Positions 3,372 through 37,500 of a stretch of 41,597 nt of DNA are shown here, piece after piece. The first letter of the stretch is position 1. The number at the start of each line of letters is the position of its first letter. The notes beneath the pieces are model-generated. The model saw nothing but the letters and a program-made list of their open reading frames with translations. It did not search any database and was not told the DNA's origin. The DNA comes from Phoronis australis (taxonomy: Eukaryota > Animalia > Phoronida). The stretch is taken from positions 1 to 41,597 of the forward strand of contig NMRA01001121.1 of the NCBI GenBank assembly GCA_002633005.1, read 5' to 3'. A program made the translations under genes and the position numbers.

Positions 3372-3538
3372 GTCTGTCGAGATTGACCAATCAGAAGAGA
3401 GGTGACTTCTATGGTGTGTCTAGCACTTGGCCAATGAAAAAAAAGCGTCAGATGGGAATTCACCTGTTGAAAAGAGCCATGGGCATCTTTGTTCTTGAGG
3501 GGGAACGTCAGATCAGGCCAGCTGATATTGGTGGCTAA
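3372..3538 (+). CDS. ANKLE1: ANKLE1/LEM-3 endonuclease, terminal exon
   Basis: tgtag acceptor (phase 1, fits previous donor); (G)LSRLTNQKRGDFYGVSSTWPMKKKRQMGIHLLKRAMGIFVLEGERQIRPADIGG then TAA at 3536-3538; matches the ANKLE1 C-terminus LTNQK.G..YG...W...EGERQ..P.DI. Not in the supplied ORF track. Confidence 0.92.
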
Positions 3539-3981
3539 TGTACATGTACCAGGTCTGACTGGCATCAGCACTCTGCTTGTACATGTACATGTACCAGGTC
3601 TGACTGGCATCAGCGCTCTGCTTGTACATGTACATGTACCAGGTCTGACTGGCATCAGCGCTCCGCTTGTACATGTACATCTACCATGTCTGACTGGCAT
3701 CAGCACTCCCCTTGTACATGCACATGTACCAGGTCTGACTGGCATCAGCGCTCCCCTTGTACATGTACATGTACCAGGTCTGACTGGCATCAGTGCTCAT
3801 CTTGTACATGTACATGTACCAGGTCTGACTGGCATCAGCACTCCCCTTCATGTACATGTACCAGGTCTGACTGGCATCAGCACTCCCCTTGTACATTTAC
3901 ATGTACCAGGTCTGACTGGCATCAGCACTCCCCTTGTACATGTACATGTACCAGGTCTGACTGGCATCAGTGCTCCGCTTG
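3539..3981. repeat. 45-bp minisatellite, about 10 copies, immediately after the ANKLE1 stop
   Basis: Unit GTACATGTACATGTACCAGGTCTGACTGGCATCAGCACTCCCCTT; one copy is 3 nt shorter. Confidence 0.95.
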
Positions 3982-6719
3982 TGACTGCCTCCTAAACTGA
4001 CCTACAGCTTTGCCTCATTTTTCAAGTGTCATGTGATGTAATTGGTCGATTTGGAGGTACAAGTCCTGAATTAAGTATGTGGTCGTAAGACACTAACTAC
4101 ATCACAACATGACTTGAGCAGTATTAGGTATCCTTAAGGCACTGCAGATGGCAAAACTGTTTGTTCTGTTCAGGATACATCTGATGGTAATGCATTTTCA
4201 CAAACTGTCCATAGGTGTCAGGCTGTGCTTTCTTGTAAGATTTGTTAGATTGCAGTGCCTTCTGTTTCCTGTTGTCAGCTATGCTTTTATCACTTAGTGC
4301 CTGACACATTTTATGTAACAGCAGCTATTATTGAAAGTTCTGCAACTCTGCATGATATGCATGTCACAATCCTCCAGTCTATGTCAATCCTTGTCCAATA
4401 GCAAGTGTATACATGTACGTGAATTAAGTTGTTAGAACAAACTTTGTCTCGATAATGAGCCACTCATAAAGCCACCTGATGTCACATTTCATAATTACAA
4501 ACATTGTGTGGCTGTCTTTGTCAACTTTGTGACACTTGCACTTTTAGTCTATTTTTAGGCACCGTGATTTTAATTTACTGTTCTATGTAAAATAGAAAGA
4601 CAGTGTTAAACAATTTTATTGCTCGTGTTGTAAAACAGGTTTGTTCAAGGTGTTTCATTAGGTTCATAATTTTATTTTTTTAAGGGAAAGTATATTGTAA
4701 CATTTGGAGTTCCATTGTTAATGATTTAATTTTAGACTTGAAATCTTTAAATCATTGTTACCTGCGGTGTCAGGTGGAAAGTATTCAGAAACTACATATA
4801 CAATAACTCTATATCACATTGGTAAAAATCTCAATGTCGTTGTGTTCTCTCTGTGTCAGGTGGAATGTAGTAAAAAACTGCATACAACTCTCTTTCAACT
4901 CGTTAAAAATCTCAATTCAGGGCAATGGACCGATACAATGTGCCCGAAATTTTAGAACTAGTTTTGTTCACTGAATATTCATCTGAAATCAATATGGCTC
5001 TCAAAATACGGGCATGTTATATCAGACTATTGTCCATGTGAGGACATTATGGGATGGATAAGTGCACTTTTTTCCATATGATGTGCAGCGGCTAGCAGAA
5101 GTGTGTACCAGTTCAATAACACAGCTACCACATGACAATGTTTGGAAATATCAAGTTGTGAATATTCGCAACAGAGTTAGAAAGTGAGAAAGGCAATTTT
5201 GGCTGAAATTGGCAAGACTTTAACATTCTTCCACTCAGCAGAGGGAAGTTTGGACTTTGGTACATTGTGCTAAGTTTTGACAAGTTTTAGCTTAACTTTT
5301 TAAGTCTTAACAGAGACTTATGAATAGGAGTGTTTTTGTTGCAGTCTGCGTTTACGCTCTGTATCAACAGAAATGTTGGCGAGACACTTTAGTGAACCAT
5401 GGACCGGGAAGGAAATTTGACTAAAAATTGTGCAGTGCTGTTATAATGTGGCTCTATGAAGGATGTATGCTTTTTTTCTGTGACACAAGGTTTTTGTGGC
5501 AGACATATATACATGGTTGTTTTACCATGTACCTTTGCTAAATCGTGTATAGATTAGAAATTGCAGGTTAACATGGTAAAGTTACCCACGTGATGTGGAA
5601 CCAATGGTTGAACCTAACTCACTGGACAGTAGGGACGGCACTGCTGTCTACAGATTTGTTCCTCAACTAGGTGTGGGATATCAAACACGGTTTTGCAATA
5701 GATTCGTCTCTTTTCAGAGCACAATCGTTCCCGAAATACCTTTCAGACCAGTCTGACTGTATGATAAATGACAAATATTCATGGCTTTACAACTTTATTT
5801 CTGAAGTGAAGCAATTATACACTTGGAACGGTGGCTCCTAGATATACATTATACGCTTTAGCAAGCTTCTCTAAATCAACCGTGAGAACACGTGTCACCG
5901 CCCACCCTGGTGATATATAGTGTTGTGCAGGGCAATTACCGCGTAAGCGATGACTTCCCCACAATAAAATACTGGCTGAAGTAAACTGAAATCCCAAGGA
6001 CAAAAACTATTAATTTTCTAATGTGTTCGGCTTCTGAAATTGAATTCCTCGTGAAAAGTTAGACAAAAGTGTACAATATTTTCACGGAAGTTTACGATAA
6101 AATTAGCCAAAACATTGCAATGTGTTTTTACTTGTTGATTATGCTAATGGTAGATTCGCCACGCGTCCCTCAGTATTTTCTAGGTTTACACACCACAGAC
6201 TGAAATGTGCTAGCAAAGCTCAAAACGGTACCCATGTTGCAAATCACGGAATTGAATCTGTGAGAAGTCAGACCTATACAGTTTTTCCCATACGTAACTG
6301 TGGATCACAGATTTATGTTGAAAACTCCCGTCTTAATTGTTCGTACTTCCACAATGTTTGGTGAGCGTTTGGTTTTGATGAGTCCACATTCCATTATCAT
6401 TCATTGGTGACGGGTTTTTCTTCATTTACAGATTTTCATGGAGTACATTTGAGTGTGAATCGCAGAACTTTATTTTCTCTAAAAATTGTATACCCACTAA
6501 AAAGCGTACATGTAGATTAAACATTCTCCATCCTAACTAATGCTCACCTCATACGAGCGAGCGTATACGCACAAGCACGCATGGCACAGACGCGCACACC
6601 CACACTCGCAAACACACACGCAAAACAAAAACACACACATATTCTAACTAGTGCATTAACGGGGACATTATCGCTCTTAATGCCGACAAACGCATGCAAT
6701 CTTATTCTCCAAGCCATGT

Positions 6720-6977
6720 TCATTGAGGTTCTCCCTCGGGGAATATCTCGTTGCACAGAACTTCATTAGTGCTGCGCATGTGGTGATAGATCGCTTCCAT
6801 ACGAATACCACGTTCAACACCGTTGATCTGAGGCCCTGCGGGTAGGCCTACCAGATGACGGTAATGACCACTATGCATCACAGCAACACGGGCGTTATCA
6901 TGTGCGTCGCTAACCAATCCTGGAGATCCAGAACTTCCACGGTTCATATTCTCACTCGCTTGGTACAGAGCCTCATG
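6720..6977 (-). CDS. ROCO-protease terminal exon: catalytic Ser of trypsin-like domain
   Basis: ttttttctag acceptor, phase 0; HEALYQASENMNRGSSGSPGLVSDAHDNARVAVMHSG...VERGIRMEAIYHHM...stop; GSSGSP nucleophile motif and xMH motif as in FAM111/Trypsin_2 proteases. Confidence 0.8.
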   Translation of the reverse strand, partial: HEALYQASENMNRGSSGSPGLVSDAHDNARVAVMHSGHYRHLVGLPAGPQINGVERGIRMEAIYHHMRSTNEVLCNEIFPEGEPQ

Positions 6978-7799
6978 CTAGAAAAAATAAACAATTCCCG
7001 AGCGAAAATTGCTGGAAAATATCCCTACTTATATTTAAACAAATTTTAAATGTAACTTGGGGTTTGTATTTAGGCACACATTTACAGGGAAATGTCAATT
7101 AATTTTAAAAAGAAATTAATTCAAGGTTTGTTTACGCAATTAAATTTGCACGAGGTCTGTCATCTTAAACCAGACCACTCTTAGTGCACAGAATGTCGGA
7201 CTGATTGTCCACATGAGGGCACAAGGAATTCATTCTTGAGTGTCAGTTTTCAAAGTAAACATTAAATATTAGCTGGTGGATATTATCTCTGAGAATTCAA
7301 AAATAATTGGCACAGATAAAAGATTCTTGTCATGAATCTGGGATTTTAAAGTCCTAGCTTTGGACAAACCTTGATGGAAAAGCAGAAAATTTATAGATTT
7401 TAGGTCGTTAATCACATTAATTATGGATAACATCAGGAGCTTTTAGTTATTTAGTTTCCATTCAGGCCCGTAGGAAGGTAAAAATTATTGGGGGGGCACC
7501 GACCCTGGTCGATACGTAACTTCTAATTTCGAAACCACTGCGTTGCACTGGGGAGTATATATCAACGCTGTAAAATGAACTACTGCAACCACTAGGTACG
7601 TTTTGAATTATATGAAAAAATATGTCTACTGATAATAAGGTGTGTAACAGATGCTGTACTTTTAGAGTTAATTTTTTGTTAAGATTGACTGGAAATTTTT
7701 GGAGCAACATACATGCCGCTCATACGATTACTCTTGTTGAACAGTAAGAATGAAGGTGTGAAATAATTGTAAATGTTTTTATTTACTCTTCAACATAAA

Positions 7800-10700
7800 T
7801 CAGTGGACGTTGCCCTGCTGCACACAGGAACTCTGGCTGTAGCTAAGTCTAACGTGGTAAAAACCCCCGAGTTGTGCCTTTCGCGCTTCACTTCCTCGTA
7901 CAAAATCGTTTGCCACATCCACCAAATTTAGCTTATCGCACATGTCTTTGTGAACATGGAGCAACATTAAATGGTTCAACCTACCCCTGTCCCATTGTGG
8001 AACGTAAATATGACTTAACACGCCTAAGAGCACTAAATGCTCGTTCGCTACTGGCATTTGTTGCAGGCATCACTAACAGCAAGTTTGCTAGTTTAATTAC
8101 ATTTTCGATCAAGTGTTTTTGACCGGCTGATAATTTCTGCAAATGATCCACAACACGAGACAATGTTACCTCTTGACTACCATCCTGTGCATAATTGGCC
8201 CCAAACGTAGCCAGGTGACAGCGCAGTGTTGAATCAAAATCATCTTCATAAAAACTGATAACATCTTGGTATTCATTTTCAAAGTTTTCCCCTTTTGCCG
8301 CCTTGAGTATCAGCTCCTCACACTGCATATAAATTTTGTAATCTTCTTGATCAAACCTGTCCCGTATTGATGCAATGATATTGTCAAGAGCTTCAAAATA
8401 AATTCTTCTATAATAATCTTCTGGACTCGAAGAAAACTCCGGAGGCGCATTTCCTGTTTCGTATCTAGCGGGTTTTCTATTGCGTCTAGGGAGACCAGGA
8501 TCTTTGACGTGATGACCCTTTGCACAAGCTGGGAATTCATCCCAGAAGTTTTTAAATTCTCTGTCGTTTCTCATCCGTTCTAATGTAGTAAGGGTCATTT
8601 TGGCAATCTTTTGAGCCTCAGCCGCGGACATCTGAACGCTTTGTAAAGTTGTACTCAGATTGTCAGCATGCACCAACAGGCGCTCTGAAAGTACTAAACC
8701 GTAAAAGAAACTAAACTGTGTCATGTGAGACTGAATTCCACGTATCCGCGCTTTCATTTCTGAATCATTGCAATTTTGGACTCCCCAGGACCAGAGTTCC
8801 TGTAAACAATCATAGTTACCTATCACACGATTCAGAGCGTCAGCCTTCACGGTCCATCTCGTTGGACACAGTTGCCGAATATTACCCACTTCTCTGTCGT
8901 CAAGCAACGCATCTCGTATTTTATTCAACTGTGCGTCACGTTTGGGAGATTTTTTTATCAGTTTGGTAATTTCGTACGTGGTGTCTAAAGCATCTGCCAT
9001 CAGCTTGCATCGTTTGATACTATCTGAGCAGGCAAGATTCAACGCGTGGCCATAACAATGTGTGTACAGGGCGCGATGTTCTTCCTGTTTAATGTTGACA
9101 ACGACTCCATTTTTGGACCCACTCATTGTGCTGCAACCATCATAGCATTGACCACGACATCTGCTTAAAGACAAGTTCATCCGCAACAGTGTGTCTTTTA
9201 GAAGTGACGTAATTGTTTGGGCATCCATCAATTCCAAGCGGCGAAATCCGATGAAATCTTCATGGGGTTGTAATGATTCGTCTACCCATCGGATACAAAC
9301 GACGAGTTGTTCGCTATTAGACACGTCAGTAGTTTCGTCTGCCAGTATACTAAAATAAGGACTGCCGCGAATGCACGACGCTATTTCTCGGAGAACTTTT
9401 AAAGCCATCAGTTTGATCGCTTCATTTTGAATATCTGGAGACGTATATTTATTTGTTTTCTGCGACAACCATGATTTCAAAATATCTGTCTCTGTTTCTT
9501 TTAGATGGAGTAGTTGAATAAAATTGGAATCTTGTTCATCTCCGTCACCCCTAAACGGTATACCTTGTCTTGCCAAAAAACGTATGTTTGTTAATATTTT
9601 CAGGAACATTCTGCGGTTTTTCGCTTTTTGCTCTCCGTGGGCTGTTGACAGTTGTTCCGCAACATCTTTGACAGACAACTTCACTATCAGTGTGCGTTCC
9701 ATTGCTTCTTTATGGCACTCAGATTTCTCATGCTTCGTAAAGCCAGACGTCTTGTCAGTAGCCTTTTTCCAGTTGGTATAACCGGTAACAACAAATGATA
9801 GCTCTTGTTTTGCTGAAGACAGCAGACCCATGTGGTAAGCTTTTGCACATATGTGACACAACACCTTATCTTCCCCCTCAATATAATGCAGCCACGGCCA
9901 TGAGATAAACCACTGTTTTTGAAATTGACGATTTTTCTTGCCAAAAGGTCGTTTTGGAAAGACGTGATTTGAAGGTTGGTGTGGATGCTCGGGAATGTCG
10001 TGTAAACCACGTTTTTCTTGCATGGTGTGAGCCGACTGAGAAGAACTGTTTTGGTGAGTGTGGGAGTTTTCACTTGGTGCTGAAGAGCTACAATAAAGCT
10101 CCTGTGACTGGCTCGATGGTTCTAAATTCGTAGTACCAGATTTGTGAGTCCCAGCGTTCACCACAAGTGGCTCTGTGTGCAATGTGGCTTCTTCAGAAGT
10201 GCTGTTTGCTAACTGCGTAGGACAGCTACTGTGGGACTCCAGGACGTCCGATAGTTCTGTGTTTGACGTTTCAGAGTTACTTTTTATATTCCAAGCTGAA
10301 GCACCTCCAGGTTTAGTGCGTGATGCGCCGCCTATTAAGTGAGTTTCGAGCGTGAGTGAGTTACTGGTTACAGGTAGGGATTTTACCTTAAAGAAGGCAC
10401 CTATTTTTCTTTGGTGACTGGAAGCGTGCTGCTTCTTTGCTCTTGAACATTCCTGGGAATCGTCGCAAAATCTTTTTTTATTCATTTGACACTCAGGTAC
10501 AGGGCGTGTGTTTTTTATTCTAACTGCTACGACATGATTTGGTTCAAAAATCGCGCCGGGTCGGTTGTCAAGATTTCCATCTCTAGACCACAAGAAAATC
10601 GCATATTTGTTGCATGAAGCATTTCCTAACACACGTGGTAAGATCTCCCCATGAAGGGAATGAACACTTTTTCCTACGTCGGGATATACGCTTGTTACTG

Positions 10701-10994
10701 GCATTTTCAATACAGACGACAGACCCATGACAGCCATGAGACCACTCCAATTCCCATCGTGGCACAGATGCTTTGCCTCTCTTACAATGGCTGCTTCATT
10801 ATCATCGTTTACAGTGTCTCCAAGACCGTCCTCCTGAGACATTACCACAGTGAATAATGTTTGAAAATCCGAAGATATAGAGTTTTCTTTCTGAGTAGCA
10901 GCAATAACGTGTGGGTGCCTTGCATAAAAGTCAGAGTGAATGAAGAGCTCGGCTGCAGTCAGCAGCCTTAATGTCACGTGGAGGGATTCGTCAC
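7800..10994 (-). CDS. hAT transposase, main exon (C-terminal part of OTU-like domain, TTF-type Zn finger, DDE core, dimerisation domain); 1-nt frameshift near the C-terminus
   Basis: tttatag acceptor phase 1; RQFQKQWFISWPWLHY...CHIC...WK...KHEKSECH; FSILADETTD, GQCYDG, HCYGH, CPTRW, ASSERAFS. Stop at 7981-7983 after RSTMGQG; the expected RLNHLMLLHVHKD continues in another frame to 7800; AATAAA on minus strand at 7778-7783. Confidence 0.9.
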
Positions 10995-12915
10995 CTATAA
11001 ACAGAAATTAAGCAACTGCAAGGTTGTATCAAGAGATTACTTGCCTTTATAAAATAAGGCCATGCGATACTTTAGATAGGTTTTGAAATTCTGTGTAATG
11101 ACAAGAAATTCGTAAATGGGCCTTATTCCAGGAATGAGTTTATAGACATAATTTCGACTTTCCGAAATGGCACTTTTAGTGAATGCCAATGGATTTTTTC
11201 CCATTTCACGTCCCCAACTTCATGGCAAATGCCCAAAATGCGCTCATACACAGAACAAAGTACGGGATGATAGTTGTTTCAAAGGGACAAGCCACATACA
11301 TGTAACCGCCGTCGCGAACCTAACATTACTATTTGCACAATTTCAGGTTAGTTTTCTGCTAGGAAACCGGAAACTTGTCGCAATTTTTTATAATCTAAGT
11401 TTTGCATTTTGTGCTTTTAAAGTTATGTAGAACCTAATAAGAGTTCCAATTTTTTCCAAATTCAAAAATGTATTGAATTTGCATCGAACTTTCAAATTCC
11501 GATACACTGTTCTCGAACACGCTGTTAGGAATTTTTCTTAAAATGTTCGACTTTTGCATGAGGGCTAATCAAAATAGTGCTTCAGATTTTTATGAAAACG
11601 TTTTAAAGTTGCATAAAACGAAAACGAAACGATATTTTAGAAAATTGTAACAGCGTTTTTGAGATTTTATCTTAAACAATTATACTACACGAAATTTGCG
11701 CATGCTATTGACGCCGTTGTTTTGTTTGATTAACAGAATGTACCTTATTAATTTGCTAAATTTTCCTATAAGTTAATGTCAAGCAACCTATTTAGTTGCG
11801 GACTGGTATGAAATCAAAAATCAAATTCTACGGAATTACTACTTTCCAAAAATATACTTTTGCTGGGCTAAGTTGTATACAATTTAGTATATATGTATTT
11901 GGCTAAATATACAGGCATGACGAGAAGGTGCTACATAACCTTAGTAAGGCGCGATGTGTTAATGTAAAAACTAATTTTGTATTTTTAGGCTGTTGTGATA
12001 ATTTGCATAGGCTATTTACTTCGTAGTTTCTGTTAAACACGCACTCCGCTAATGGGCGTCATTTTGCTTCTCCAAATTGAACTTTGGTTCATTTGACATT
12101 TAGTAGTACAGCAAAGCCTATAACATATTTTTTAACGTACATGTATTTCTTTTACTTTTTGGGTATGAAAGAAGGAATTCTGTGTTTCATATTCTTATGT
12201 TTCACTGAGCTACTACTCGCGTTTCATAAGAAAGTGAAATACGTTTCTGATTTCCCCGTTATAATGCGACACTATGGGACTTACTAAAGTAGTTCACAAA
12301 TTCTATTTTGTCATTGTACTACAGCCACTGTTGAATGCTATCCGGAAATATGGTGAACAAACAAAATTTGAGACCAAAATGCAAAAGGTGCACGTGTATT
12401 ATCACCGTGGTCAAATCAATAACTGCTTCCTGTGCAAACGATCAAATCTACGGTCTTCCAGCATAGGAGTTGAGTGAACGTAGTTAATGTTAAATGCATG
12501 CACTTTATGCATGAATACCACAGTTGGAGAAAGTAGTCTGCACTATAGATAAACTGTGGGTCGTTGACCCCTTTTTTCAATTTTTCACTCCCAGTTCTTT
12601 GGAAATTTCATTGAAAATATTTAAACTCTTTAATTTTAGAGAATGAGCGTTAATACTATAAGTTTTTCGTCATTATACAAGTTATTGTCACACAAGTTAA
12701 GATATATCTCTATTCATCACCATTTAAAACAGGGTACACGTTTGAATTAGCCGATACCTCAAAACCCAGGCATTTTCTACCATAATAGCCAATGACTTCT
12801 ATTTTAGCAACGGGTAATTCATTACATTTCTAGACAGACCGTGTGATTTGTCGTTTACATTCAGCAAAAACACGATCAGAAAACAAACACTATGAGCCAA
12901 AATCGATTCTTAATA

Positions 12916-13052
12916 CATGGGCGGCGCACTATAGGGGGCTGAGAGGCTATCACCCCCCTTAATTCAGTGGTGCACCGTCCGCGGGCGTAGGCGGCGCACC
13001 TGATAGGGGGCTGAGGGAATATAGCTCCCCACTAAATGCTGCGCCGCCCATG
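12916..13052. mobile_element. 137-bp MITE nested in the transposase intron
   Basis: 13-bp TIRs CATGGGCGGCGCA / TGCGCCGCCCATG, flanked both sides by TAATA. Confidence 0.8.
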
Positions 13053-13107
13053 TAATATCGACTAAAGTAAAAGTCAAAAATCTATTACGAAAAATATAAA
13101 GTTATAC

Positions 13108-13357
13108 CAGTTATGCAAAGAGAAGCGGCTCGAAATAAACAGTTGCCGTCCCCAGATGTGCGAATGGGTTCGTGTGTTGACTGGTGAGATTCGGGAATTA
13201 TGCATTTTGCGAACTCGTCGATCAGAGCATTTTCCAACAAACTAGATGTAGAAAGAGGGGATTCAACAGCTTGTGTTACAAGGTTACTGTATGTGTCGTA
13301 TAGACTTCCAGCTTTCTGCGAGTCGTATCCAATCGACGCCACGAGTTCTCCAAGGCC
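13108..13357 (-). CDS. hAT transposase exon 2: OTU/vertnin-like catalytic Cys loop
   Basis: ttttacag acceptor phase 0, gtataa donor phase 1; ...PIRTSGDGNCLFRAASLCIT(G) joins in frame to DESLHVTLRLLTAAELFIHSDFY of the main exon. Confidence 0.82.
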
Positions 13358-13478
13358 CTGTAAAATACAGAATTTGTGACCACTGATCGAAATTTACTCC
13401 AGTTCCCTGCTATAACGTGCATGCGACAATCACAATGAACAGTAAAAATAACTCCACAACGTTAGAAAACTCAATTAC

Positions 13479-13496
13479 CTCCATTGTGGTCGACAT
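13479..13496 (-). CDS. hAT transposase putative first coding exon (MSTTME)
   Basis: ATG TCG ACC ACA ATG GAG then gtaatt donor, phase 0, matching exon 2; about 350 bp inside the TIR. Confidence 0.6.
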
Positions 13497-14089
13497 CTCG
13501 AATAATGCACTGAACACCAAAGTTCAAGCTTAGAACTGCACGCGCTACTGCTAGATATAATGTAACACTTACCGGACGCACGTGAGGTCTTCACTTTGCC
13601 GACGGCGCTAAACATCAACTTGAAGTCTTGTTCTGCAGTCTTGGGAAACGATTCTTTGGCGAAATAAAAGCTACCTGATCCACAGGTTTTTTATGGTGTT
13701 TTTCTGATACCTAAGTCAGATTCTTCAATTTCGTTATAAGTCTGAGAAAACTGTACTTCAAATCAAAATACAATGTTGCAGAAGCTTCTACGCTGAAAAT
13801 TTTTGGGGGGGCACGGGCCCCCCCGGCCCCCCCGCTTCCTACGGCCCTGTTAATTGGGCCTCGGACTGAAAAACCAACTTCAGTACAAAGGCCTACAAAT
13901 AACGGAATCTCCACATACTCTTGCCTTCTAAGCAGTGCAAGAGAAAAGTGGAGATGAATTGTGAATACTTATATCTACCAGAATTTGTCGAGTTCTGACC
14001 TATTATAATCAGGAACTAAAAGGAAAACAACAGCAGGACCCTTAGTCATTCATTTTTTGTAGTAACAATATGATGGGGGTTTCACTTAC

Positions 14090-14397
14090 TGGACATGGCG
14101 AAGGATGGTGTACTACTGGGCACTGAATGTCCACAACCTTGGCCTGACCTCCAGGATGACCAGCAATATGTACCTTCTCGTGTCCGTCTAACTTTGTAAA
14201 CTTATCCAAAGCTTCAGGCAACTGGTTTTCTGATTCAACAAGGAGGGCTAAAACGGCGTAATCTAGATTTTTGTCATAGATGACAATTGGGTCGGGGGCA
14301 AAACAGACTGATCTCATGCTTGCTTGGTCACCGTACTGGAACGGTCTGTCAAAGTGGAATAGGCATGACCTCTCCCTTTGTCGTCTTCTTTCTTCCC
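14090..14397 (-). CDS. ROCO-protease exon: catalytic Asp region
   Basis: tttgcag acceptor phase 1, gtaagt donor phase 0; contains F.FD..., KNLDYAVLAL and VHIAGHPGGQAKVVDIQC, typical of FAM111/Trypsin_2 domains. Confidence 0.82.
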
Positions 14398-14879
14398 CTG
14401 CAAACAATTTTCAAGCAATCAAGTGAACTAGTCGCTACACTTCAAATCTTTTCACCCATGAATTAAAAACAGGGTAGCAGAGGAAATCACTAAAACTTTG
14501 ATATTCTTGGAGAAGCTTACGCGAGGGGTCAGTTCTACGAGTACAATGAGGGTGTTGAGGAACTATTTCATTGTATGACCACGCAAGCGCAGAGTATCAG
14601 CAGTGAGCCTTCAAAAGATGCTACACATGGCATCACTGAGAATTATATCATTTTTAAGTTGCGTTATTGTTTCGCTGTTATTCGGGGTTGTGTAGCAAGC
14701 TTTTCTTTTCAAGAAAAGGATATGAAGGTTTGTTTCGTTTATAAGCTGTTATGCGTTGCAGGGTGGGTAGAGTTCAGCCACCTTTCACACGCCGTGTCTC
14801 TCCTTTCGCATCCGAAGCCCTGTAACTAACAACATTTTTGCTTTGTATGAGATATTTCTCCGCCACTTATATTGTTTAC

Positions 14880-15099
14880 CTTGGTTGGGGGCGGCGCCTT
14901 CAAGCACCACGTGGTAGTTTGTCAACAGATAACGAGAGCCAACTCGAAAGCCTGAACCAGTTTGACTATTTAACCAAGTCACCTTGGCTACAGACGTGAA
15001 TGCTTGCATCAAAGATTTCATGAAGTGCTGGAATACTGTTTCCTTGCCTCTTTGACACAGTGCTTCAGAATCTCGTCGAGGCGTGGTTGCGCCTATCTT
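14880..15099 (-). CDS. ROCO-protease exon: catalytic His region
   Basis: cttacag acceptor phase 0, gtaaac donor phase 1; SVAKVTWLNSQTGSGFRVGSRYLLTNYHVV. Confidence 0.85.
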
Positions 15100-15623
15100 C
15101 TGTAAGCAACATATAATCTGTAATGGAATCTACAACTGATGTGACATGTGAGTATTCAATCCAGCGTGCATGAATAGAGTCTTACCCTGACACCACCACC
15201 AGTCAAACTTTGGTAGCTTGGCCGTTTCGCTAACCTTCAAACCCATTGCTATCTTCAAAGAAACCATCCAGCGTCAGTTGATGTTTATTATCCTTCTCGG
15301 GAGATTATCTTAGTTAAGGCGGGAAATTGGCCATCATAAACATAGTTGTAATGACTTCGAACCACAATAGTATCGTTAGTAAAGTTTTAGAGATCCCGAA
15401 TGTAAACTATAATCCCGATATGATAATGATAATGATTGCTCCTCACAACGCTTGTTTGTACCTCATGGGACATCGCTTAAATAAATTAAATATACATTAG
15501 CTTAACTGCGAAGGTATAATGCATTTAATGCAGTAGAAGTGCACTGAAAGATTTTTATGTTACAGTGATACACTTTGAAAATATATTTAGTTGAAAAACG
15601 AAAATAATCTGTTTCCAATTCAC

Positions 15624-15706
15624 CTCTGAATGGATTCTGTCAACCGTATCCACATCAAATCGACGTCTCTTTGGTGGAGGGGATTCGGACTGGGCACCAA
15701 TCACAC
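15624..15706 (-). CDS. ROCO-protease linker exon with NLS-like PPPKRRR
   Basis: cttctcag acceptor phase 1 (fits COR exon donor), gtgaat donor phase 0; (G)VIGAQSESPPPKRRRFDVDTVDRIHSE. Confidence 0.65.
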
Positions 15707-16549
15707 CTGAGAAGTAGGACGTACAACCACACGGTTAGTTGGTTTAACCGTACCGAGAGTGCTGTCGCATAGTACAGGTACTATTGTGGTACGCACCAAG
15801 ACATACAGTATCGGTGCACCAGTAAACAAACCGAATGAAAATACTTTCAGTAACAACGAGGTCAGTGCTCGAGTCGTAACCTGTGTACTCAAACTTGTGC
15901 TAAGTCAAGATAAGTGTCAGTTCATACTCTGCATCAGTACGATATGCTGGTGAATGTCTAGTTCAAGCTTGCACTTGATGACCCTAAGTTAGAGCTACAA
16001 TTTTGAGTTCAAACTCGGTAATTCGATAAAAATTGAAATTTTGAGTTCAGACTTGAAGTTATTAATGTTGGCACAGGCGTATAATAGAAAAATATTCTGA
16101 AATTTGATTTCGATACAAAGAATATTCTCCGGCCAGGTATTCCAAGATAACCTACGTGTTTGATAAAGACTAGAAACATTGTGATGCACAATCCATCAGT
16201 CTCAAAAGGTGTACAATTGACTGCTCCACACCGTATTTTTAGTTGTACAGTGAAGTGCAGAATGTATAATAAATATGTTTCACAGTCAGTAAACTGTCAA
16301 AAACACCATCCAGTGCACTGAAGTTAACTGGAACGGAAAAAAACACCCATGACTGCGCTGTGAAATATTAGATTTTATGTATGAAAAAGCGACTTGGTTG
16401 TTTTACTTTGCATAAATACTGGCATGCGATCAAACAAATTTATCTCTGAAAGTATTGCACATTCTATTAACACTTTTTTCTGTTATTTCCATCTAGACTG
16501 TGAGTCGTGTCGCGTATGGATGGTTGATTGGCGAAAAGAAACAACATAC

Positions 16550-19500
16550 CTGTTGGAATGACCACATCCACTGGCACCCTCTTGTCTTTACTGTTCTTAC
16601 ACGGCAGATACTTCCCAAGGTTTCTCCAGGACTCTAGCAACTTGTTAGCCGTAAAACATGAGGGTTCCTTTTGGTTGCTGGTCAGACAATGAGGGCATAT
16701 GTACCTTATATCGCATGGAGCGCCAGGCCATAGTTTCAAGAGGTTAACAATGTCATAGTAGGCGTGTTCAAAATGTGGCCACACGGCCTTGATCTCATTA
16801 CCCCTTACAGACAATGTAACAAAAATTTCCTCTCCCTCCTGTTTTCTGGTTAGCAATGCTTTGTCATCATCTTTGTGTAAGTAGACACCGTTTTTCCAAA
16901 CAATGACATCCTGTGCCGATTCCTCAAATTGGGCAAACTGTTGGTGTAATATGACGACAGCACGTTCGAAGAAACCAGTGGGGCACTGTACTGGAAAGAT
17001 GAATTTCACTTCATAAAGGTACTCATTTGACGAGGGGCGCAACCACTTTTCACCCTTAAGATCAGACGGTTCCTCATTCTTAAGGAACCAAGGAAACATC
17101 AGGTAACTACCATCATCGTTTTCCGACAGAGTAAAACAAAGGGAAAATTTCTCCAAAAGAAAAATCATTATTCTGAACATGAGCTCGTCTGTAACAAAAC
17201 CTTTTACTAAGTGCCGTAGAAGTGCAGACGAAATCCTACCATTTTGCAAGAAATTTTGTTTCTCAGTTTTAAAAACTTTCTCAGTGAAACTTGCTTTGAA
17301 CACAGGATTGGTGTGGTCAAGTAGCGTGTCCATGTCATGATGAAAAATCGACTTCAGAAAGTCTACAATCACTTCTGGCCTGTGGAAGACGCATTTGTTT
17401 AGTCGACTGTCGCCTTTGAACCAAAGAAAACCTCCGCAGCAATGCTGATACGAAAGAATGGCTTCAGCTGTTTCAGTTGCTTGATCTGCTCGAACGCCTT
17501 TGCTGGATAACCTTTGCTGCACAATTTCGCAAAATTCAGTATACTGGAGGCAATGTTTGGCCTTAATATCATCTGCATTCATTCGGTCTTCTATCAACAG
17601 CCATGATTCTGGAAGAGTCAGGGCCTTTCGCTCGCAACATGTTATCAATGCATGACGAAGTTCAGAAATCCCTCTCATGGTGTCACCAGAGCTTACTACA
17701 AACACGTGTTCAGGCTGAACAAAGTTTTGCTGCAAACACTGCAATAACTCCTTTTTTGCGGCATGGACTTCTTTAAGATGATTTGAGTATGTCTCAAAAT
17801 TATCTCGAGAGCTAGACCGTATTTCCATGTCAATCTTGAACAGGTGAGTTGTCACGTGTTCTGCCAATAGTGTCTGCTGACTCCTGATCTGATCTAGAAT
17901 GTTCCTTGTCGATGTTTGTATATGCTCTTCCGTACAAAAGTCGCTGTGAGTACAAACTACCATCACTGTAGACTTTGGTGAAGTCCAAAGAATTGAATTC
18001 ACCCAACGACCGATCAAATCATGGTATTTATATCTTTTATACTGATTCAAGTCAACAGCCACCAGAGCAATAACCTCAGAGCACAAAAACAAGGTGTGTG
18101 CCAACTCATATACTTGATGACCACCAAAGTCTGTGATAAGTAACGTCAAACCATCTTCTACAGCCCAGGTGTATTTCTGTAACACATGTGTGCGATCGCT
18201 GCTATCAGTTAAATAAGACCTTCCGTCCTTCAACGTCAATGCCAGGCTAGTTTTACCAGCGCCAGTTTCACCCACCAGCACCACCTGTTGCTTGCGAAGG
18301 GAACATTCAGTTGCTCGGAGATCTTTGAAATATCGGAATATTTGCTCTGGCCCACTGTTGCAAACTTCGAGTGGTGGTCTTGTTAATGGGTTATCTCTGC
18401 AGGTCATGTCTGTCAGAGAACCACACCGATCAAAGTGTAACGGAAGTTGATTTATCTGATTAGCACTGATGTCGAGAGATTCTAATTTGTAAAGCTGTGT
18501 TATCTCTTCAGGCAATTGCGATATCTTATTATTTGCACACTTTAATTTTGTTAGATTAAAGCATTTGCAAAGGTCTGTTAGGTCAGTTATCTTATTGCAG
18601 GACAAATCAAACTCTTTCAGTTCACCGAAGTTGACTAACTCCGCAGGAAGGCCCTCTAACTGGTTGAAACTCGTCTTTAGTATCTGCAGTTTCACACATC
18701 CAACAACAGGTGTGATGTCAGTTATCTTATTGTAGGACAAATCAAGCTCCTTCAGTTCACCTAACTTGACTAACTCCGCAGGAAGGCGATCTATCTTGTT
18801 TCGTAGAATGAACAACAGGTGTAATGTCAGATATGTTATTGCAGGATAAATGAAGCTCCCTCAGTTCACCTAACTTGACCAACTCCGCAGGAAGGGCCAT
18901 TATCTGGTTGCCCTCCAATACTAGTATCTGCAGTTTCACACATTCAACAACAGGTGTGATGTCAATCAAACTATTGTAGCCCAAACGAAGCTCCTTCAGT
19001 TCGCCTAACTTGGCTAACTCCTCAGGAATGGCCTCTAAATAGTTGTACAACGCGTTTAGTACCTGTAGTTTCGCACATTCAACAACAGGTGTGATGTCAG
19101 TCAACCCATTGTAGGACAAATTAAGCTCCTTCAGTTCGCCTAACTTGACTAACCCCGCAGGAAGAGCCTTTAACCCGTTGCTATGCGTGAGTAGCACCCT
19201 CAGTTTCGCACATTCAACAACAGGTGTAATGTCAGTTATCTCATTGTAGGACAAATCAAGCTCCTTCAGTTCACCTAACTTGACAAACTCCGCAGGGAGG
19301 CCCACTAACTGGTTGTTATCCACTTCTAATACCTGCAGTCTCGCACATTCAACAACAGGTGTAATGTCAGTTATCTCATTGCAGGACAAACCAAACACCT
19401 TCAGTTCACCTAACTCGACAAACCCCGCAGGAAGGCCCTCTAACTTGTTGTCACACACATTTAATATCTGAAGTTTCGTACATCCAATAACAGGTGTAAT

Positions 19501-20581
19501 GTCAGTTAAATAGTTGGAGGACAAATCAAGTTCCTTTAGTTCGCCTAACTTGACTAACTCCTCAGGAATGGCCTCTAACCGATTGCAATTCGTCTTTAGT
19601 ACCTGTAGTTTCGAGCATCCAACAACAGATGTAAGGTCAGTTACCGTATTAAAGGACAAATCAAGCTCTTTCATTTCACCTAACTTGGCTAACTCCCCAG
19701 GAAGGGTCTCTAACCGGTTGCCAATCGTCTGTAGTACCTCAAGTTTCGCACATTCAACAACAGGTGTGATGTCAGTTATCTCATTGCAGGACAAATCAAG
19801 CTCCTTCAGTTCACCTAACTTGACTAACCCCGCAGGAAGGCCCACTAACTGGTTGCCACACACCTTTAATATCTGCAGTTTCACACATCCAACAACAGGT
19901 GTAATGTCAGTTACCTCGTTGTAGGACAAATCAATCTCCTTCAGTTCACCTAACTCTAACTGCAAGGGAAGTCTCTTTATTTGGTTGTGACTCATCCTCA
20001 ATACTTGCAACTTTGTACATCCCAAAACAGGCCCAATGTCAGATATCTCATTGTCAGAAAAATCAACCTTTGTCATCTCTCTTATATATCTCATGTCAGT
20101 TGGAATATCACTTAACCTATTCCCAGCTATCCATAACATCTGTAGATTTGCACATGCCGTAACCGGTGACATATCACTTATGATATTGTAACTTAAATTT
20201 ACCTTTTCCAGTTGCGTTAATAACTTAATGTCACTGGGGATGTCTTGAATTCTGTTGAGACTAAAATTAACAAACTTCAGACTCAAAAGTGAGAATGTCA
20301 CATTCGGAATTGATGTTAGATTGTTTGACGACAAATCAAGATGAACAATGTTTTGGCAAGACGCTAGTCGTAGTGGAATTTGATCATCACTTAAACCCAA
20401 ATTACTCAGGGTTACTGACTGGAGCTTCTCAAATTTTTCTGTCGTCGAAGAGTCCGACTGATGTTCCTTAACTCCTGAGAAGTATTCCAACGTCTCATTT
20501 CTCTCCAAGGCTTCTTCCTCTTGCAAGGCTGCTGCCCATTTGGTTTTGATGACGTCTGGATACTTCAGATGAGAAAATTCC
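16550..20581 (-). CDS. Giant exon encoding LRR array, Roc GTPase and COR domain (internal frameshift)
   Basis: cctttag acceptor phase 2, gtatgt donor phase 1. LRR cap NPLTRPPLEVC; Roc motifs GETGAGKTS (G1), RT (G2), DFGGH (G3), THSD (G4), VSS (G5); COR motifs LPESW, FPWFL, PTGFFER, WKNGV, CPHC. Confidence 0.92.
18600..19960 (-). repeat. 135-bp coding tandem repeat (45 aa = 22-aa + 23-aa LRR pair), about 10 units
   Basis: Anchor TCAGTTCACC or near variants at 19941, 19806, 19671, 19536, 19401, 19266, 19131, 18996, 18861, 18752, 18617: nine 135-bp spacings and one of 109. Confidence 0.95.
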
Positions 20582-21164
20582 CTAAAGGAAACAAAGCAGA
20601 GAAGTTATGGGTCCTACTGTAGGAGAAATGCATTGTTAGCCTTTAAATTATTTGACCCAATGATAGAACTATTTTATTCTTTGGAGCAGAAATATGAGGT
20701 ATTAGCCATAGAAAAGAAATTGAAAATGTTCTGTTAGTACTGTCTACAGGCATTAAGACGACCAACGCTATGGAAAGGGAGAGTGTGACCGTCATGATTT
20801 ATGTGTGTCGCATATGCGTAGGCCTACATATATAAAGTATTTGTTGGAAATATGAAAAACGCAAGATGGTAGAATTCCAACATAATGTGTTTCATGTTAC
20901 ATGAAAAGCTGTTGCACGGTCAATGAAAATAATTGGTGTACTGGCATTAAAATTTGTTGTATACAACTGGTTTTGGTCATTTATGGTTGGACCAGGGAGT
21001 CCGTGATCAACAATGATTTTGTCGGAATTCAAACAAAGTTTGGGAGATGTTAACTTTCAAAGTTGGTTGTCGGTAATAGTGACAAAAATACAAATAAGGG
21101 CGAATTACGACTGTGTTGTCTTGTGAAAAGTATTTGTGCGGGAGATGACCCAGCAGGAGATAAA

Positions 21165-21390
21165 AATCTTCCATAGCGACGATTAGACTTCAAGTCGCAC
21201 ATCAGAAATTGAAGTGAAGGAATTTCAACATTTGTAATAGGAGGAATTGAAGAGCATTTCATGTTACATTGTTCCGTTCTAGTAGATTTAAGTAACAGAT
21301 TCATTCTACGCTGCCACGATTAAAGTTAACTTTTGAACTCAACAACAGCAATTAACTCTTTAAAAAAATATTCAATGTATATAAAAAGGG
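21165..21390 (+). mobile_element. Possible decayed non-LTR retrotransposon 3-prime remnant
   Basis: Broken frames read IATIRLQVAH and IEEHFMLHC, resembling the LINE ORF2 C-terminal RxSxHxL and E..HF...C motifs. Confidence 0.3.
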
Positions 21391-24257
21391 TAGTGCTAAG
21401 TCAGAAATAATTGCGAAGAGAATGAACTATCTCAGTTCCCTGACCCACAATGGAAGATTTCCCTCGCCAAAGCTTGGATATACTGCAAGCACTCTAGATG
21501 CAAGCATTTCTGTGGGTTGCATAGACCCTTTGTTAAGCACGGAAGCGAAGCGAAGTCTGAAAGGGGGGAGGGGGTTAACTTATCTCTCTGTAATGGTCAT
21601 ATGCATTCCACCATGACAAAAATCGCCGAGGCCAACAAGTGTTATGTGACATATGGTTTCCATAGGCTCTACTACTACACAACGCTAAACTCACATCAAC
21701 ACAAGCTAATTACTAATTAATGGCCTATCTTTTACTGTACGCTTGTGCAATACACGCTGAGGTCGTGGTTTTGATGTTCTTGGTTTCGTCGTCGACCTCA
21801 CCTTTAACTTTTATTCGGTTTCGCCAAGTGTCGTTCATCAGAGCGCTTATACTGTGTAGACGGCAACGCTCGTAGATAGGATAAATCTTATCAATATTGC
21901 AGTTTTCACGAAAGTCGCCCACCAAAAACCCTGTATAGATCTAACCACCATAGTACCCATGGGTAGGGGGCTCGAAGGAGCCCCCCCCCCTCCCCGTTTG
22001 AAAAAGTGGTCAAAAAGGTCCGCCTCAGAGAAACAAAAAGTCCGAGAACACGAGATAAAAGTCCACTAAAAAGGTGCTCCACAGACGGCACATTAGCCGC
22101 ACACGAGCGCCCTCTATGTACAGCTGGACACCCTGCAGCTTTGTGAGACTGGATTTTTTCGCGAAGATCTTCTTTGCTCTATGACAAAGGAAAAATCTTC
22201 TAAAGCTTAGCAAATTGACGATTTTGGTAACCCTTAAGATGTCGTCATCGTTTAATTCATGGTTTCAAAAGAACGTTCGATTTCTTTTCAAATACGAATT
22301 GTACACGTACTCTGTTATTTATTGTAAGACCACTTCCGGAAAGCATAAGCGTCATTGAAAACAGTAATTCTGCCTCCAAAAGTTAATCTACGGGCATGTT
22401 GGGCTCGGGGTTGAGATTGATCTATGAGCGATCCGATTATTTTTACAGGTAATTTACTACAGAAATTAAGCATATAAAAATTTTAATATTTAGAAGCTTA
22501 AAAACAGTAACTGCGGTTAAAACCGCTTCACAGTTACTGTTTTTACTATGAAAGTTTCTGTCGAAAATCGAATGTCTGTTGCAGTTGTTACATCTAACAT
22601 TCATAATTTCAACTAAGTTGATAACATCAGCATATATAAATATTATCACTTTTTTGTGAAACGTGTAGAACCTTTCGCTGATCTACCGTGGAACACGTCA
22701 ATATGCTTCTCAAATCGAATAGCACGTACAGCGCAGGTGAAATTGGATTTTCCAAAGATTGATAATTTATTGCTGTTTGGAGGCAAACATCTTTGCCTAA
22801 TTTTTCTGACATTACGGGAGTTTTTCTTAATCTGAAGGCCGCATTTTTTAGTATTTCACTGAAATCTGAAAATATCTGTTTCCCAATGCAGGACTCATGG
22901 TAGTCAGGTTGTAACAAATTATTGTTCATTGAAATTGCAATGTACATGTAGCTCACAAACCTGACGACATTGCCGTCGTCCATAAAAGGACTGCTATGAA
23001 TCAAAAACCAGGTGGGTGATGTGCAGGGTGCAGTGCTCACCAAGATTAATAAAAGTAGTTTATCATTCATCTATTTCAATACGTGATTCTTCAACACGAC
23101 TGTAATTTTGCGAGACTCGCATTTGATAAGATTACAGGGCACCAACCGATATGTTTTTCATCATTCTTCGATGTAATCTTTCCGGGTCCTGATAAAAGCC
23201 TGTTTTCTTAATATTCTTAAATTAATAAATATTACAATAACATTCGCGCCTTTCCGACAAGCAATGCCGCACCTCCTTAACCTGTGCGCTGACAAGGGTG
23301 CGTCTGAACGTCACTATGCCCTTTGGGGGGCATACGACGTACATTCGCCTGAATTTCATAAACCTACGTAAAAATGCACCGAAACATCGGATTCGACTTC
23401 CTAACGCAAGAGATAAAATAGTAGATGTTAAAACAAATATGACAAATGCCATACTAGAACAACTTATTTTCAAGACACCATCGGAATTTTCTGACGTTTA
23501 AAAAGTACACCAACAAAATATAACACGCAACGTCCAAGGCAAGCTCCATGCATTTGCTGCAATATTCGTCTGTTTTGGCCTTACGTTCTCATACACATAC
23601 AGTACAACCACGTTCCTCATTCGATCCGTGCAGTATTCGTCTGCTTAGTTTTCGTAAGACGTAATCACAGGCATACAGTACATGTGTATAAAAAATTGAA
23701 TTTCCCGTGCAAACGAATCTTTGGAATAAAATTAAATGCTTAGGCTATCCGGTCAAATATCAAGGTACTCTGGACATTCACTGGTGTTTTGGCAGCCGCC
23801 CTCTCGCACTTTCTGTTCATTTCAAAATAGAACTACATCATGAATCTTTGCCATTGTACAAGCTTCAAAATAATCACTACATGATTTATTCACTTACTGA
23901 TAGGCATTTCAGTAGTGGTTGAACTGAAATCAAACTTGATCTCAAGATGGCGTGTTCTTACAGTTTCTGCAGAAATGAGCCACACATTAAACTTTCAAAA
24001 GTGTACATAGCAGGACTTTTTCTATTCATGACGACTTTTTGTAATAATGAACTCAACAAACACAACTGCTAACTTAATCTTGAAATTTATTTAGATGCAC
24101 TTTGTCTATATTTCAAATCGAGTATGTCACTCGTTGTGAGAAAACTCCCCTACGGATTCATCAGGTCCCAACATTCCGCGCTATCTTTTCCTAACTTGTA
24201 ATCTTGCATGCAACCATCGAATCTGATTTAGGTTTTTTCAAACACGTTTTCACCTAC

Positions 24258-24325
24258 CGTGTACTTTTAACATGCAATAGGCGACGGCGCTCCCTGGTTC
24301 TAGCCAAACTGCTAGAGTCCATCAT
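24258..24325 (-). CDS. ROCO-protease putative first coding exon
   Basis: Exon 24374-24258 (ttttacag acceptor, gtaggt donor); MMDSSSLARTRERRRLLHVKST ends in phase 2, matching the 20581 acceptor; in-frame stops lie upstream of the ATG. Confidence 0.6.
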
Positions 24326-24776: not shown

Positions 24777-25012
24777 AGTGCGTGTCGTATGTTCACTGTC
24801 ACTAGTGCCTTCCGTGTGTTCACTGTTCTAATACATGCCGTGTGTTCACTGTACCAGTGCGTTCCGTTTGTTTACTGTACTAGGACGCGCCGCGTGTTCA
24901 CTGTACTAGTGCATGCTGTGTGTTCACTGTACTATAGTGCGTGCCGTGTGTTCACTGTACCAGTGCGTGCCGTGTTGACCTATTCAGTGTACTAGTGCAT
25001 GCCGTGTGTTCA
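24777..25012. repeat. About 26-bp minisatellite, left block
   Basis: Degenerate unit CTGTACTAGTGC(A/G)TGCCGTGTGTTCA, about 9 copies. Confidence 0.88.
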
Positions 25013-26829: not shown

Positions 26830-27140
26830 TGTACTAGTGCATGAGGCGTGTAGTCACTGTACTAGTGCGTGCCGTATGTTAACTGCACTAGTGCATGCCG
26901 TGTGTTCACTGTACATGTACTAGTGCATGCGGCGTGTGTTCACTTACTTGTGAGTGCCGTGTGTTCACATACTAGTGCGTGCCGTGTGTTCACTGTACTA
27001 GTGCGTGTCGTATGTTCACTGCACCTGTGAGAGCCACGTGTTCACTGTACTTAGTGCATGCGGTGTGAAGTCACTGTACTAGTGCATGTCATGTGTTTTC
27101 TTTACCAGTGCATGCCGTGTGCTCACTGTACCAGTACATC
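26830..27140. repeat. About 26-bp minisatellite, right block (same unit and orientation as 24777-25012)
   Basis: Unit CTGTACTAGTGC(A/G)TGCCGTGTGTTCA, about 12 degenerate copies. Confidence 0.88.
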
Positions 27141-27255
27141 CCGTTTGTTTTATAGCAAAGGAATAATCAAAAATATTGCTGACTTTTTTTACACTTACAA
27201 ATTTACGCACTTGAGATAATCGGAGAGTTTAAAGGCGTATACAGCGCCCCCTTAA

Positions 27256-28579
27256 AGGCGAAGGCAACCCTTTTTCATGTCACTTTTAGCAAAAATAAGG
27301 TTCGTTGATTATCCCAGACACATTTTCACTTAATTACAGCTTTTCGTAATTTGATTAATTACTCGTCCTCTATTCCGGAAGTGACGTTTTGGGAGGCAAA
27401 AGTTTCGCGCCAATTTCTTTTCATTATAGTCTGACTGTGAGAGCTGTCGAGTCAGTCATTGTTCTACTTCGTTTGTGATAAGTTCGGTCGTCGTTTGCTT
27501 TTGTTTACAAGTCAGTGAACATGCCACGCTGTTGCTGCGTGCCGGGATGTACTCATTATCGTCTCACACTTGCTTTGGGTACCTTGTGTCGCTTTCCGAA
27601 GGATGACACACTTCGCCGTACTTGGCTAGCTCGTTCATGTAAAGAACGCAGCGCTACCCGTCCACGCAACGTACAAAGCAATGAAGGGTTACCGAGTGTG
27701 TGGCAAGCATTTTCTTTTATGACAGATACGTACGCTGAAATGATGAAGGTCCCTGCGAAACAACGCCTGAAGAAGGGTACCATACCGTAGCTGTTGATTC
27801 CCGGCAGTGCCCCGTCGCCAACCCCGAGAAGTGCGTTTTTGAAGCGAGAAGCCTGGCGAGCTGTGGCCACTATATACAGCGACTCGGGAGGCACTTCATC
27901 TACTGTTACCCGTGCCTCCGAACGTACCCCATTGCGTGCAATTCCGGGAACTAGCAGTGATTCGCCCTATGCTGTTGTCTCTAGCCCAGAGCCTGTAAGC
28001 AGCCCTGCAGCGATTTTGAGTAGTGGGAGTGAATACAGGCCCAGTTCGACACCCAGTGAAGAGGACAGTTCGTCATACAATGAACAGATCGGTGAGCCTA
28101 AGTTTGACAAGTTTATTGTGGAATTGTATTGAAGATATTTGGAAGGTGCCAGGTGTGTGGCGCGGGAGTCACACGGCGGGATGTAAGCAGTTTGGGTGCT
28201 CAGATCACCCTCCAGTGGGAGTGTGTCGCGGGACACTCGGGCAAGTGGGACAGTTCTTCCTCTGTACGTGAGACGATAACGAGTACACCCCAGTACGCAG
28301 CGACAGCGTGGCATGTTGACTGACTCGTAAGCAAAAGCAAACGACGACCGAACTTATCACAAACGTGGTAGAACAATGATTGACTCGACTACTGTCACAG
28401 TCAGACTACATGAAAAGAAATTGGCGCGAAATTCTTGCCTCCCAAAACGTCACTTCCGCAGTAGACGACGACTAATTAATTAAATTACGAAAAGCAGTAA
28501 ATAAGTGAAAAATATGTCTGGGATAATCAACGAACCTTATTTTCGCTAAAAATGACATGAAAAAAGGTTGCCTTCGCCT
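27256..28579 (+). mobile_element. Kolobok deletion derivative with 312-bp inverted arms (foldback)
   Basis: TTAA at 27252-27255 and 28580-28583; ends AGGCGAAGGCAACC / GGTTGCCTTCGCCT; arms 27256-27567 and 28268-28579 are diverged inverted copies. Confidence 0.9.
27521..28267 (+). pseudogene. Truncated, frameshifted THAP-domain Kolobok transposase
   Basis: MPRCCCVPGC...RFPKD...W...(shift)RVCGKHF...RLKKGTIP is a THAP C2CH finger; KFIV...FGRCQVC...WECVAGHSGKWDS is the pre-catalytic Cys/His segment seen in Kolobok transposases; DDE core absent. Confidence 0.8.
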
Positions 28580-37335: not shown

Positions 37336-37500
37336 GACTAACACTTGAACATGAGGAAACCCACCGTGTTCTCAATTTTGTGTCTTTTTGAAAACATTCC
37401 TTATAATTTCAAATACTCACTGGGTAATGTTCCACGAGTACATGTAGTTCCGGGACCGCAATACGGAACACAATATCACATGGCTGTATTGATCTTGAAT

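Follow-up and report, generated by a model that had tools for sequence, protein, structure and literature searches.

Proteins in which leucine-rich repeats (LRRs), a Roc GTPase and a COR domain precede an effector have been described from bacteria and algae. The bacterial LRR-AP-GTPase-COR proteins share the order fast-evolving LRRs, Roc (AP-GTPase), COR and effector, the effectors being variable (at least 24, including trypsin), and are predicted to be counter-invader systems (PMC8195603). Brown-algal ‘group 3’ and other stramenopile, alveolate and rhizarian (SAR) ROCO proteins carry a C-terminal peptidase, again as eukaryotic LRR-ROC-COR followed by a trypsin-fold peptidase (IPR009003) (PMC11378527). 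Here we describe a gene on the minus strand of a 41,597-nucleotide (nt) stretch of Phoronis australis DNA (GenBank assembly GCA_002633005.1, contig NMRA01001121.1; the whole stretch is called the window below), the exons of which join LRRs, Roc and COR to a protease of FAM111 type.

The Phoronis gene differs from the bacterial proteins, which are prokaryotic and described computationally only, in being animal, intron-containing and equipped with a FAM111-type effector (PMC8195603). It belongs to a different lineage from the algal proteins, and its LRRs lie within one exon rather than in one exon per repeat. Animal ROCOs occur in up to forty domain combinations, which might include the ROCO-FAM111 pairing; one supplementary file of that study has no mention of trypsin or peptidase (PMC11378527). 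ROCO-TIR fusions are known from the invertebrates Aplysia and anemones (PMC9334734, PMC5094078). MFHAS1 and Chlorobium tepidum Roco (group-1 ROCO; PDB 6HLU, 8R4B), the Lingula protein P0001 and the amphioxus proteins P0002, P0003 and P0005 have the LRR-Roc-COR core in common with the Phoronis gene but, unlike it, are without the protease, and the amphioxus proteins end in a GT4 glycosyltransferase.

On the protease side, the closest solved structure by sequence is the human FAM111A protease domain (PDB 8S9K, 8S9L), which shares the triad motifs, a GHP motif, the C-terminal segment and, where alpha1 lies, a helix-like stretch, this last likeness being one of position and amphipathicity only. 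The Phoronis protein has a shorter loop before the Ser motif, and where a FAM111A orthologue would have two UBL domains and a PIP box it has LRR-Roc-COR instead. The two UBL domains are found in vertebrates and the PIP box in placental mammals, this region being missing in invertebrate FAM111, and the available part of the same review of FAM111 evolution names coral and amphioxus members with no Roc fusion (PMC9798293). Our literature search found no paper on an animal ROCO-protease, FAM111-type included, most subscription journals lying outside its coverage. The original prediction, made from the letters of the window, had known of no characterised animal example; that stands as far as the literature found extends, but ROCO proteins with a trypsin-fold effector are already in print from bacteria and SAR algae (PMC8195603, PMC11378527), and it is the animal FAM111-type version that is apparently undescribed.

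Exons, transcripts and domains of the gene

The exon chain LRR-Roc-COR-protease is a real, transcribed and spliced animal gene, with its last junction predicted. Its features, including one lesion and one inserted transposon, are as follows.

24258..24325, minus strand: exon 1, with the predicted start ATG at 24325 and a phase-2 donor GTAGGT; from sequence and phase fit to the acceptor at 20581
18330..20581, minus strand: exon 2, LRR array of tandem 135-nt units (45 amino acids, two LRRs each) with variable exposed positions; from Pfam LRR_4/LRR_8 and unit spacing, lower boundary approximate
18800..18811, minus strand: 26-nt deletion in one LRR unit causing a frameshift, exact breakpoint ambiguous within this span; from a 109-nt unit against 135 nt and overlapping open reading frames (ORFs) in two frames
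17613..18290, minus strand: exon 2, Roc GTPase; Pfam Roc E 1.6e-9, motifs at 18272, 18197, 18131, 17951 and 17696
16550..17612, minus strand: exon 2, COR-A and COR-B; Pfam COR-A E 1.1e-8, COR-B E 2.8e-11
15624..15706, minus strand: exon 3, linker with a basic PPPKRRR motif; from RNA for both flanking junctions and frame
14880..15099, minus strand: exon 4, amphipathic segment at the FAM111A helix alpha1 position, first strands and catalytic His codon 14913-14911; profile E 6e-7, RNA joints
14090..14397, minus strand: exon 5, catalytic Asp codon 14263-14261 and GHP motif; profile E 3e-15, FAM111A PDB match
7463..13849, minus strand: hAT transposon in the last intron, with 15-base-pair (bp) terminal inverted repeats; DUF4371 and hAT dimerisation domain (Pfam), spliced transposase
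6720..6977, minus strand: exon 6, catalytic Ser in GSSGSP (codon 6932-6930), FAM111-type C-terminal segment and stop; profile E 1e-11, X3 same-strand depth

The six minus-strand exons (24325-24258, 20581-16550, 15706-15624, 15099-14880, 14397-14090 and 6977-6720) have AG acceptors, GT donors and matching phases, and exons 2-6, spliced and read in the frame from 18860, give 1,059 open codons with the sole stop at the chain end. The last intron (14090/6977) has a strong GTAAGT donor, a pyrimidine-rich acceptor and phase 0. Within the window, the Roc-COR part and the protease part each occur once.

RNA came from three raw runs (X1-X3) and one contig set (X4) of the same species label and other individuals, aligned over 6300-18500 at 90% likeness, with ~19% of each raw run used and a threshold of three reads for a joint. 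Nine X3 reads carry the junction 16550/15706, where the donor after 16550 is GTATGT; junction 15624/15099 is carried by eight X3 reads, one X2 read and one X4 contig, and 14880/14397 by an X4 contig. A second, diverged X4 contig has 40 letters swapped for 40 at the exon 4/5 junction, with the length kept, which points to transcription from two or more copies or alleles. Coverage of the gene is thin in X1 and X2. Read-through to the stop at 16467, a transcript end that would have spoken against a single chain, was not seen, depth being 0 in all four runs across the bin 16068-16474. The original prediction had phase-compatible exons linking LRR-Roc-COR to the triad: exon phases, the open frame and three RNA junctions bear this out, among them two of the three joins it had singled out (16550-15706 and 15624-15099), but the assembled copy is frameshifted before Roc and the third join, 14090-6977 to the Ser exon, is not among the listed joints. 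In the intron at 15946-15983, high same-strand depth with loose ends in X1-X3 marks a repeat that also occurs in an abundant transcript of another locus.

LRR, Roc, COR-A and COR-B all score above the Pfam cut-offs, and Roc followed by COR within one ORF places the protein in the ROCO family. From general knowledge of GTPases we take the five Roc motifs to be G1 (18272), G2 (18197), G3 (18131), G4 (17951) and G5 (17696); all are intact, and the P-loop and DFGG columns are invariant across 10 aligned ROCOs. The PPPKRRR motif of exon 3 presumably resembles a nuclear localisation signal. Pfam, applied to ORFs of the gene outside exons 1 and 3, matched neither a kinase or death domain of the LRRK1/LRRK2/DAPK1 type nor NACHT or NB-ARC. 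The protein may be like a nucleotide-binding, leucine-rich repeat receptor (NLR) in its working, yet it is not an NLR, a type that belongs to the signal transduction ATPases with numerous domains (STAND).

Trypsin_2, which the original prediction expected beside LRR, Roc and COR in a domain scan, falls below the Pfam cut-off on single exons (E 0.0011 and 0.02). A profile built from nine homologous protease domains, on the other hand, picked exactly the three protease exons, in the right order, among 2,474 six-frame pieces (next best E 3.9), and the spliced domain matches it with E 1.9e-40, which puts the observation far outside chance. The His-Asp-Ser triad stands in trypsin-fold order and aligns with the nine homologues, the exon 5-6 join being predicted. 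In searches of the PDB, exon 5 matches solely FAM111A (8s9l/8s9k, E 6e-4) and exons 4 and 6 singly give no significant match; a profile including all three protease exons places FAM111A top (E 9e-22, next protease 1.5e-6), and the homologue profile has FAM111A as its sole protease match (E 2e-27), from the start of the solved domain. FAM111A is also the top Atlas cluster for the relative P0121. Judged by these searches the protease is FAM111-type, as originally called, and FAM111A is its closest solved protease. The hydrophobic moment of exon 4 reaches 0.58-0.60 at residues 22-34, at the place of the FAM111A dimer helix. AlphaFold on a five-row protease alignment gave a mean predicted local distance difference test score (pLDDT) of 40.7, and a protease tree of 10 rows put the window sequence on a long branch and was uninformative on origin.

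The profile thus finds all three of the triad exons said originally to lie 8 kilobases (kb) apart, but the bulk of that spread is the hAT element of ~6.4 kb, which had been overlooked. Three X3 reads skip 7460-13852, and the insertion is therefore probably polymorphic.

Relatives in other animals

The LRR-Roc-COR ORF had 213 matches among proteins of 1,305-3,725 amino acids, and the protease part was matched by 0 of the 120 listed. Among the matches listed, the nearest relatives of the Roc-COR part are from a brachiopod (Lingula) and amphioxus, the Lingula protein P0001 being nearest with ~31% identity over 96% of the query. These relatives carry other C-terminal domains, GT4-conflict in three amphioxus proteins, and the Lingula protein is without the protease.

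Searches with the protease gave a different set. Exon 5 alone, against 1.84 billion representatives, had five matches, one FAM111-like (P0121) and four that are apparently WD40-repeat matches, and P0121 leads to an Actinia gene model with Roc, COR-A and Trypsin_2. A profile search of proteins of 1,051-3,000 amino acids gave 10 matches, all of them database gene models. The Ser motif GxSGSP is present in eight of the 10, and Roc is above the Pfam cut-off in four of these (P0126, P0133, P0134 and P0135, from Actinia, Saccostrea, Argopecten and Mizuhopecten); the remaining two are Actinia Roc-CORs without protease. Actinia and bivalves thus have homologues whose single chain holds both Roc-COR and the protease; a lack of such homologues would have told against the original prediction. 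As here, the FAM111-type protease with its Ser motif stands directly after Roc-COR in Actinia XP_031567289, Saccostrea XP_062585359, Argopecten XP_069128434, Mizuhopecten XP_021378942 and Crassostrea LOC105342660 and LOC111121151. These unannotated models differ in having NACHT, B-box, PH or unassigned N-termini in place of LRRs, and in belonging to a separate Roc-COR group. The two Crassostrea clusters number 23 and 38 members, with many isoforms among them, and in an Atlas cluster of 70 members, listed without taxa, Trypsin_2 occurs in 100% and Roc in 26%.

Three Actinia tenebrosa proteins (P0126, P0127 and P0128) have near-identical Roc-COR cores with NACHT, DED plus Death, and CAP-Gly N-termini, and the protease in one only. 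On the likeness of these cores, the trio is a case of very recent domain shuffling, in which the NACHT may come from a merged gene model. A Roc-COR tree of 15 rows, which leaves out five candidates without a P-loop match and four degenerate oyster proteins and has long branches, groups the window protein with Lingula (94/96), near the amphioxus GT4-bearing proteins and apart from the anemone and bivalve group (98/96). A single clade of the five protease-bearing Roc-COR rows is rejected (approximately unbiased test, p-AU 1.5e-5), so that the protease probably joined Roc-COR on more than one occasion. The tree is read most simply as two or more attachments or as swapping that recurred, although an ancient fusion followed by many losses may apply instead. 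The protease appears to behave as one among several swappable effectors on invertebrate Roc-COR scaffolds.

Possible functions of the fusion

The reading we favour, although with a confidence that stays somewhat short of even, is that intact alleles encode an intracellular immune receptor made of one chain, whose protease is predicted to be switched on by the nucleotide state of its Roc-COR part, the assembled copy being likely null. From what was observed, namely the architecture, the motifs, the transcription and the recurrence, we infer the sensing, the switching, the output and the immune role. An invader-derived or damage ligand would be bound by the variable LRR face, and binding would shift Roc-COR towards a GDP or nucleotide-free dimer. 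Proximity would pair the N-terminal helices of two protease domains and order the oxyanion hole, as in FAM111A, and the protease would then cleave proteins of a virus or a cell-death substrate of the host. Chlorobium Roco is mostly a monomer when bound to GTP and a dimer in the absence of nucleotide (PMC6337361), so that dimer-linked activation would follow GTP hydrolysis or release and not GTP binding. In FAM111A, dimerisation through alpha1 is needed for substrate cleavage but not for autocleavage (PMC10920703). The link between FAM111A activity and dimerisation, on which the original prediction drew, therefore holds for the first and not for the second, and an autocleavage assay would not probe the dimer model. 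FAM111A is antiviral and is a target of a poxvirus serpin (PMC11847056).

A wider proposal, which we regard as more doubtful, is that a class of intracellular immune receptors in marine invertebrates has so far escaped description: FAM111-type proteases would have been grafted more than once onto Roc-COR switches with different sensors, and an antiviral protease that depends on dimerisation would be licensed directly by a GTPase that dimerises. If true, the ancestral role of the FAM111 domain would be that of an immune effector, predating the vertebrate role in DNA replication. Through the recurrent pairing, FAM111A, a restriction factor for poxvirus and SV40, is tied to the receptor-like architectures of oysters, scallops and anemones, which provides candidate immune genes for farmed shellfish and a testable origin of the FAM111 antiviral role. 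For LRRK2 it is still debated how the Roc-COR nucleotide cycle controls the fused enzyme, and a natural fusion to a protease with a dimerisation-dependent human relative would report the state of the switch in a simple way.

Several observations weigh against a nucleotide-switched receptor. The coding sequence comes to 4,969 nt (1 mod 3), and translation would meet its first stop at codon 631, ahead of Roc; the LRR region is split over two frames because one unit, 18822-18714, has 109 nt instead of 135 nt. The assembled allele as written cannot encode the fusion and is probably a null allele, while restoring the 135-nt unit gives a protein of ~1,664 residues. The loss of 26 nt from a tandem array resembles the slippage of a single haplotype more than an error of base calling. 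We considered a small intron that would bypass the frameshift and rejected it, the 10 GT-AG candidates all being weak and within conserved repeat coding sequence. The frameshift makes this locus less valuable, and the homologues from oyster and scallop are better suited to experiments.

The 14090/6977 joint to the Ser exon is absent among the listed joints at the threshold and run fraction given above, three reads cross the last intron unspliced, and short reads of possible paralogue origin cannot demonstrate a single full-length transcript. GHP and the Ser motif lie 37 residues apart, compared with 56-73 in all nine homologues, which makes the loop ~20-35 residues shorter; it may be that an exon is missing or that the region beside the FAM111A activation loop L6 is altered. 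A hidden-exon scan of the last intron over 135 open splice models gave 130.8 for the best model with a strong donor, against 124.9 for the direct join (~6 bits), and 136.5 for the best overall, which requires a poor donor; no convincing extra exon emerged.

The evidence for a variable sensor is also divided. The ratio of non-synonymous to synonymous differences (pN/pS) at exposed positions of the first LRR per unit is 2.09 against 0.83 at scaffold positions over nine units, an uncorrected value from only six codons and non-independent pairs, and for the second LRR per unit it is 0.90. LRRs are present in 0 of the eight protease-bearing homologues. Four oyster homologues (P0129-P0132, Crassostrea/Magallana) have weak or no Roc/COR scores, one being without a P-loop, with the protease motifs intact, and an active GTPase is therefore not retained in every relative.

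The main rival, which we consider unlikely, is an immune sensor-protease without control by a Roc-COR dimer, in which LRR-Roc-COR would keep the protease inactive until a ligand or self-cleavage of the linker freed it, possibly to the nucleus by way of the basic motif of exon 3. The presence of PPPKRRR within the linker suits such a release, as does the retention of the protease in oyster homologues while the Roc motifs decay, and FAM111A itself autocleaves at Phe334, beside the protease domain, with dimerisation not needed (PMC10920703). What the release model leaves unexplained is that the five GTPase motifs are intact here and that an amphipathic segment stands at the alpha1 position.

A species-wide decaying pseudogene, transcribed as a functionless relic of a shuffled fusion, is improbable. 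The frameshift, the hAT insertion, the shortened protease loop and the very low depth in X1 and X2 would all fit decay, and five of the six coding differences listed between X3 reads and the window are non-synonymous. However, ~5 kb of coding sequence hold one lesion only, within a slippage-prone tandem array; the 1,059 downstream codons are open, with catalytic motifs and splice sites all intact. Transcription and splicing in X3 come from a haplotype seemingly without the hAT element, and the diverged X4 copy, at 40 letters for 40, keeps the length of the exon 4/5 junction.

The unlisted 14090/6977 joint and the unspliced reads across the last intron would also fit a chain that ends before exon 6 or skips it, leaving His and Asp without the catalytic Ser as a binding or decoy domain, but this is very improbable given the strong donor, pyrimidine-rich acceptor and phase 0 of that intron. 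Exon 6 and the region downstream are transcribed on the same strand at similar X3 depth (4.7 at 6707-7113 and 5.8 at 6300-6706), coverage of exon 5 is low and its other junction, 14880/14397, is likewise unlisted in X3, and the Ser motif lies within one chain in all eight homologues. A housekeeping role with no immune function, like the clearing of protein obstacles from DNA by FAM111A, is the least probable of the alternatives: FAM111A works at replication forks (PMC10920703) and the chain has a possible nuclear localisation motif, but it has no UBL or PIP region (also missing in invertebrate FAM111 proteins, PMC9798293), and patchy distribution, domain swapping, variable LRRs and a null allele suit a conflict gene better.

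The hAT element and the rest of the window

Spliced at the RNA joints 13573/13357 and 13108/10994, the hAT transposase is open over 1,093 codons. Ahead of its DDE core stands a pair of motifs like those of OTU cysteine proteases (GDGNC and NH), with a weak Peptidase_C65 match (E 0.023). A further 245-nt CT..AC joint at 9666-9910 in the transposase ORF, carried by X1 and X2 reads, comes from alternative splicing of the transposase transcript. Expression of the family is strong in X1 and X2, and the window copy differs from most reads at 7983, by one base near the stop. The insertion has no clean 8-bp target-site duplication.

The DNA of the window is ~40% GC and rich in introns and repeats. At 198-443 (+) there is an exon of a LEM-3/ANKLE1-type GIY-YIG nuclease gene (Pfam E 7e-15). 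The region 27252-28583 holds a THAP-domain fragment (27482-27787) and an inverted second copy (~317 nt, 90% alike), probably a decayed DNA transposon, and is flanked by 26-bp tandem repeats at 24777-25012 and 26830-27149. A 45-bp minisatellite of 10 copies lies at 3538-3982, and a nested satellite with a 433-bp unit occupies 37500-41596.

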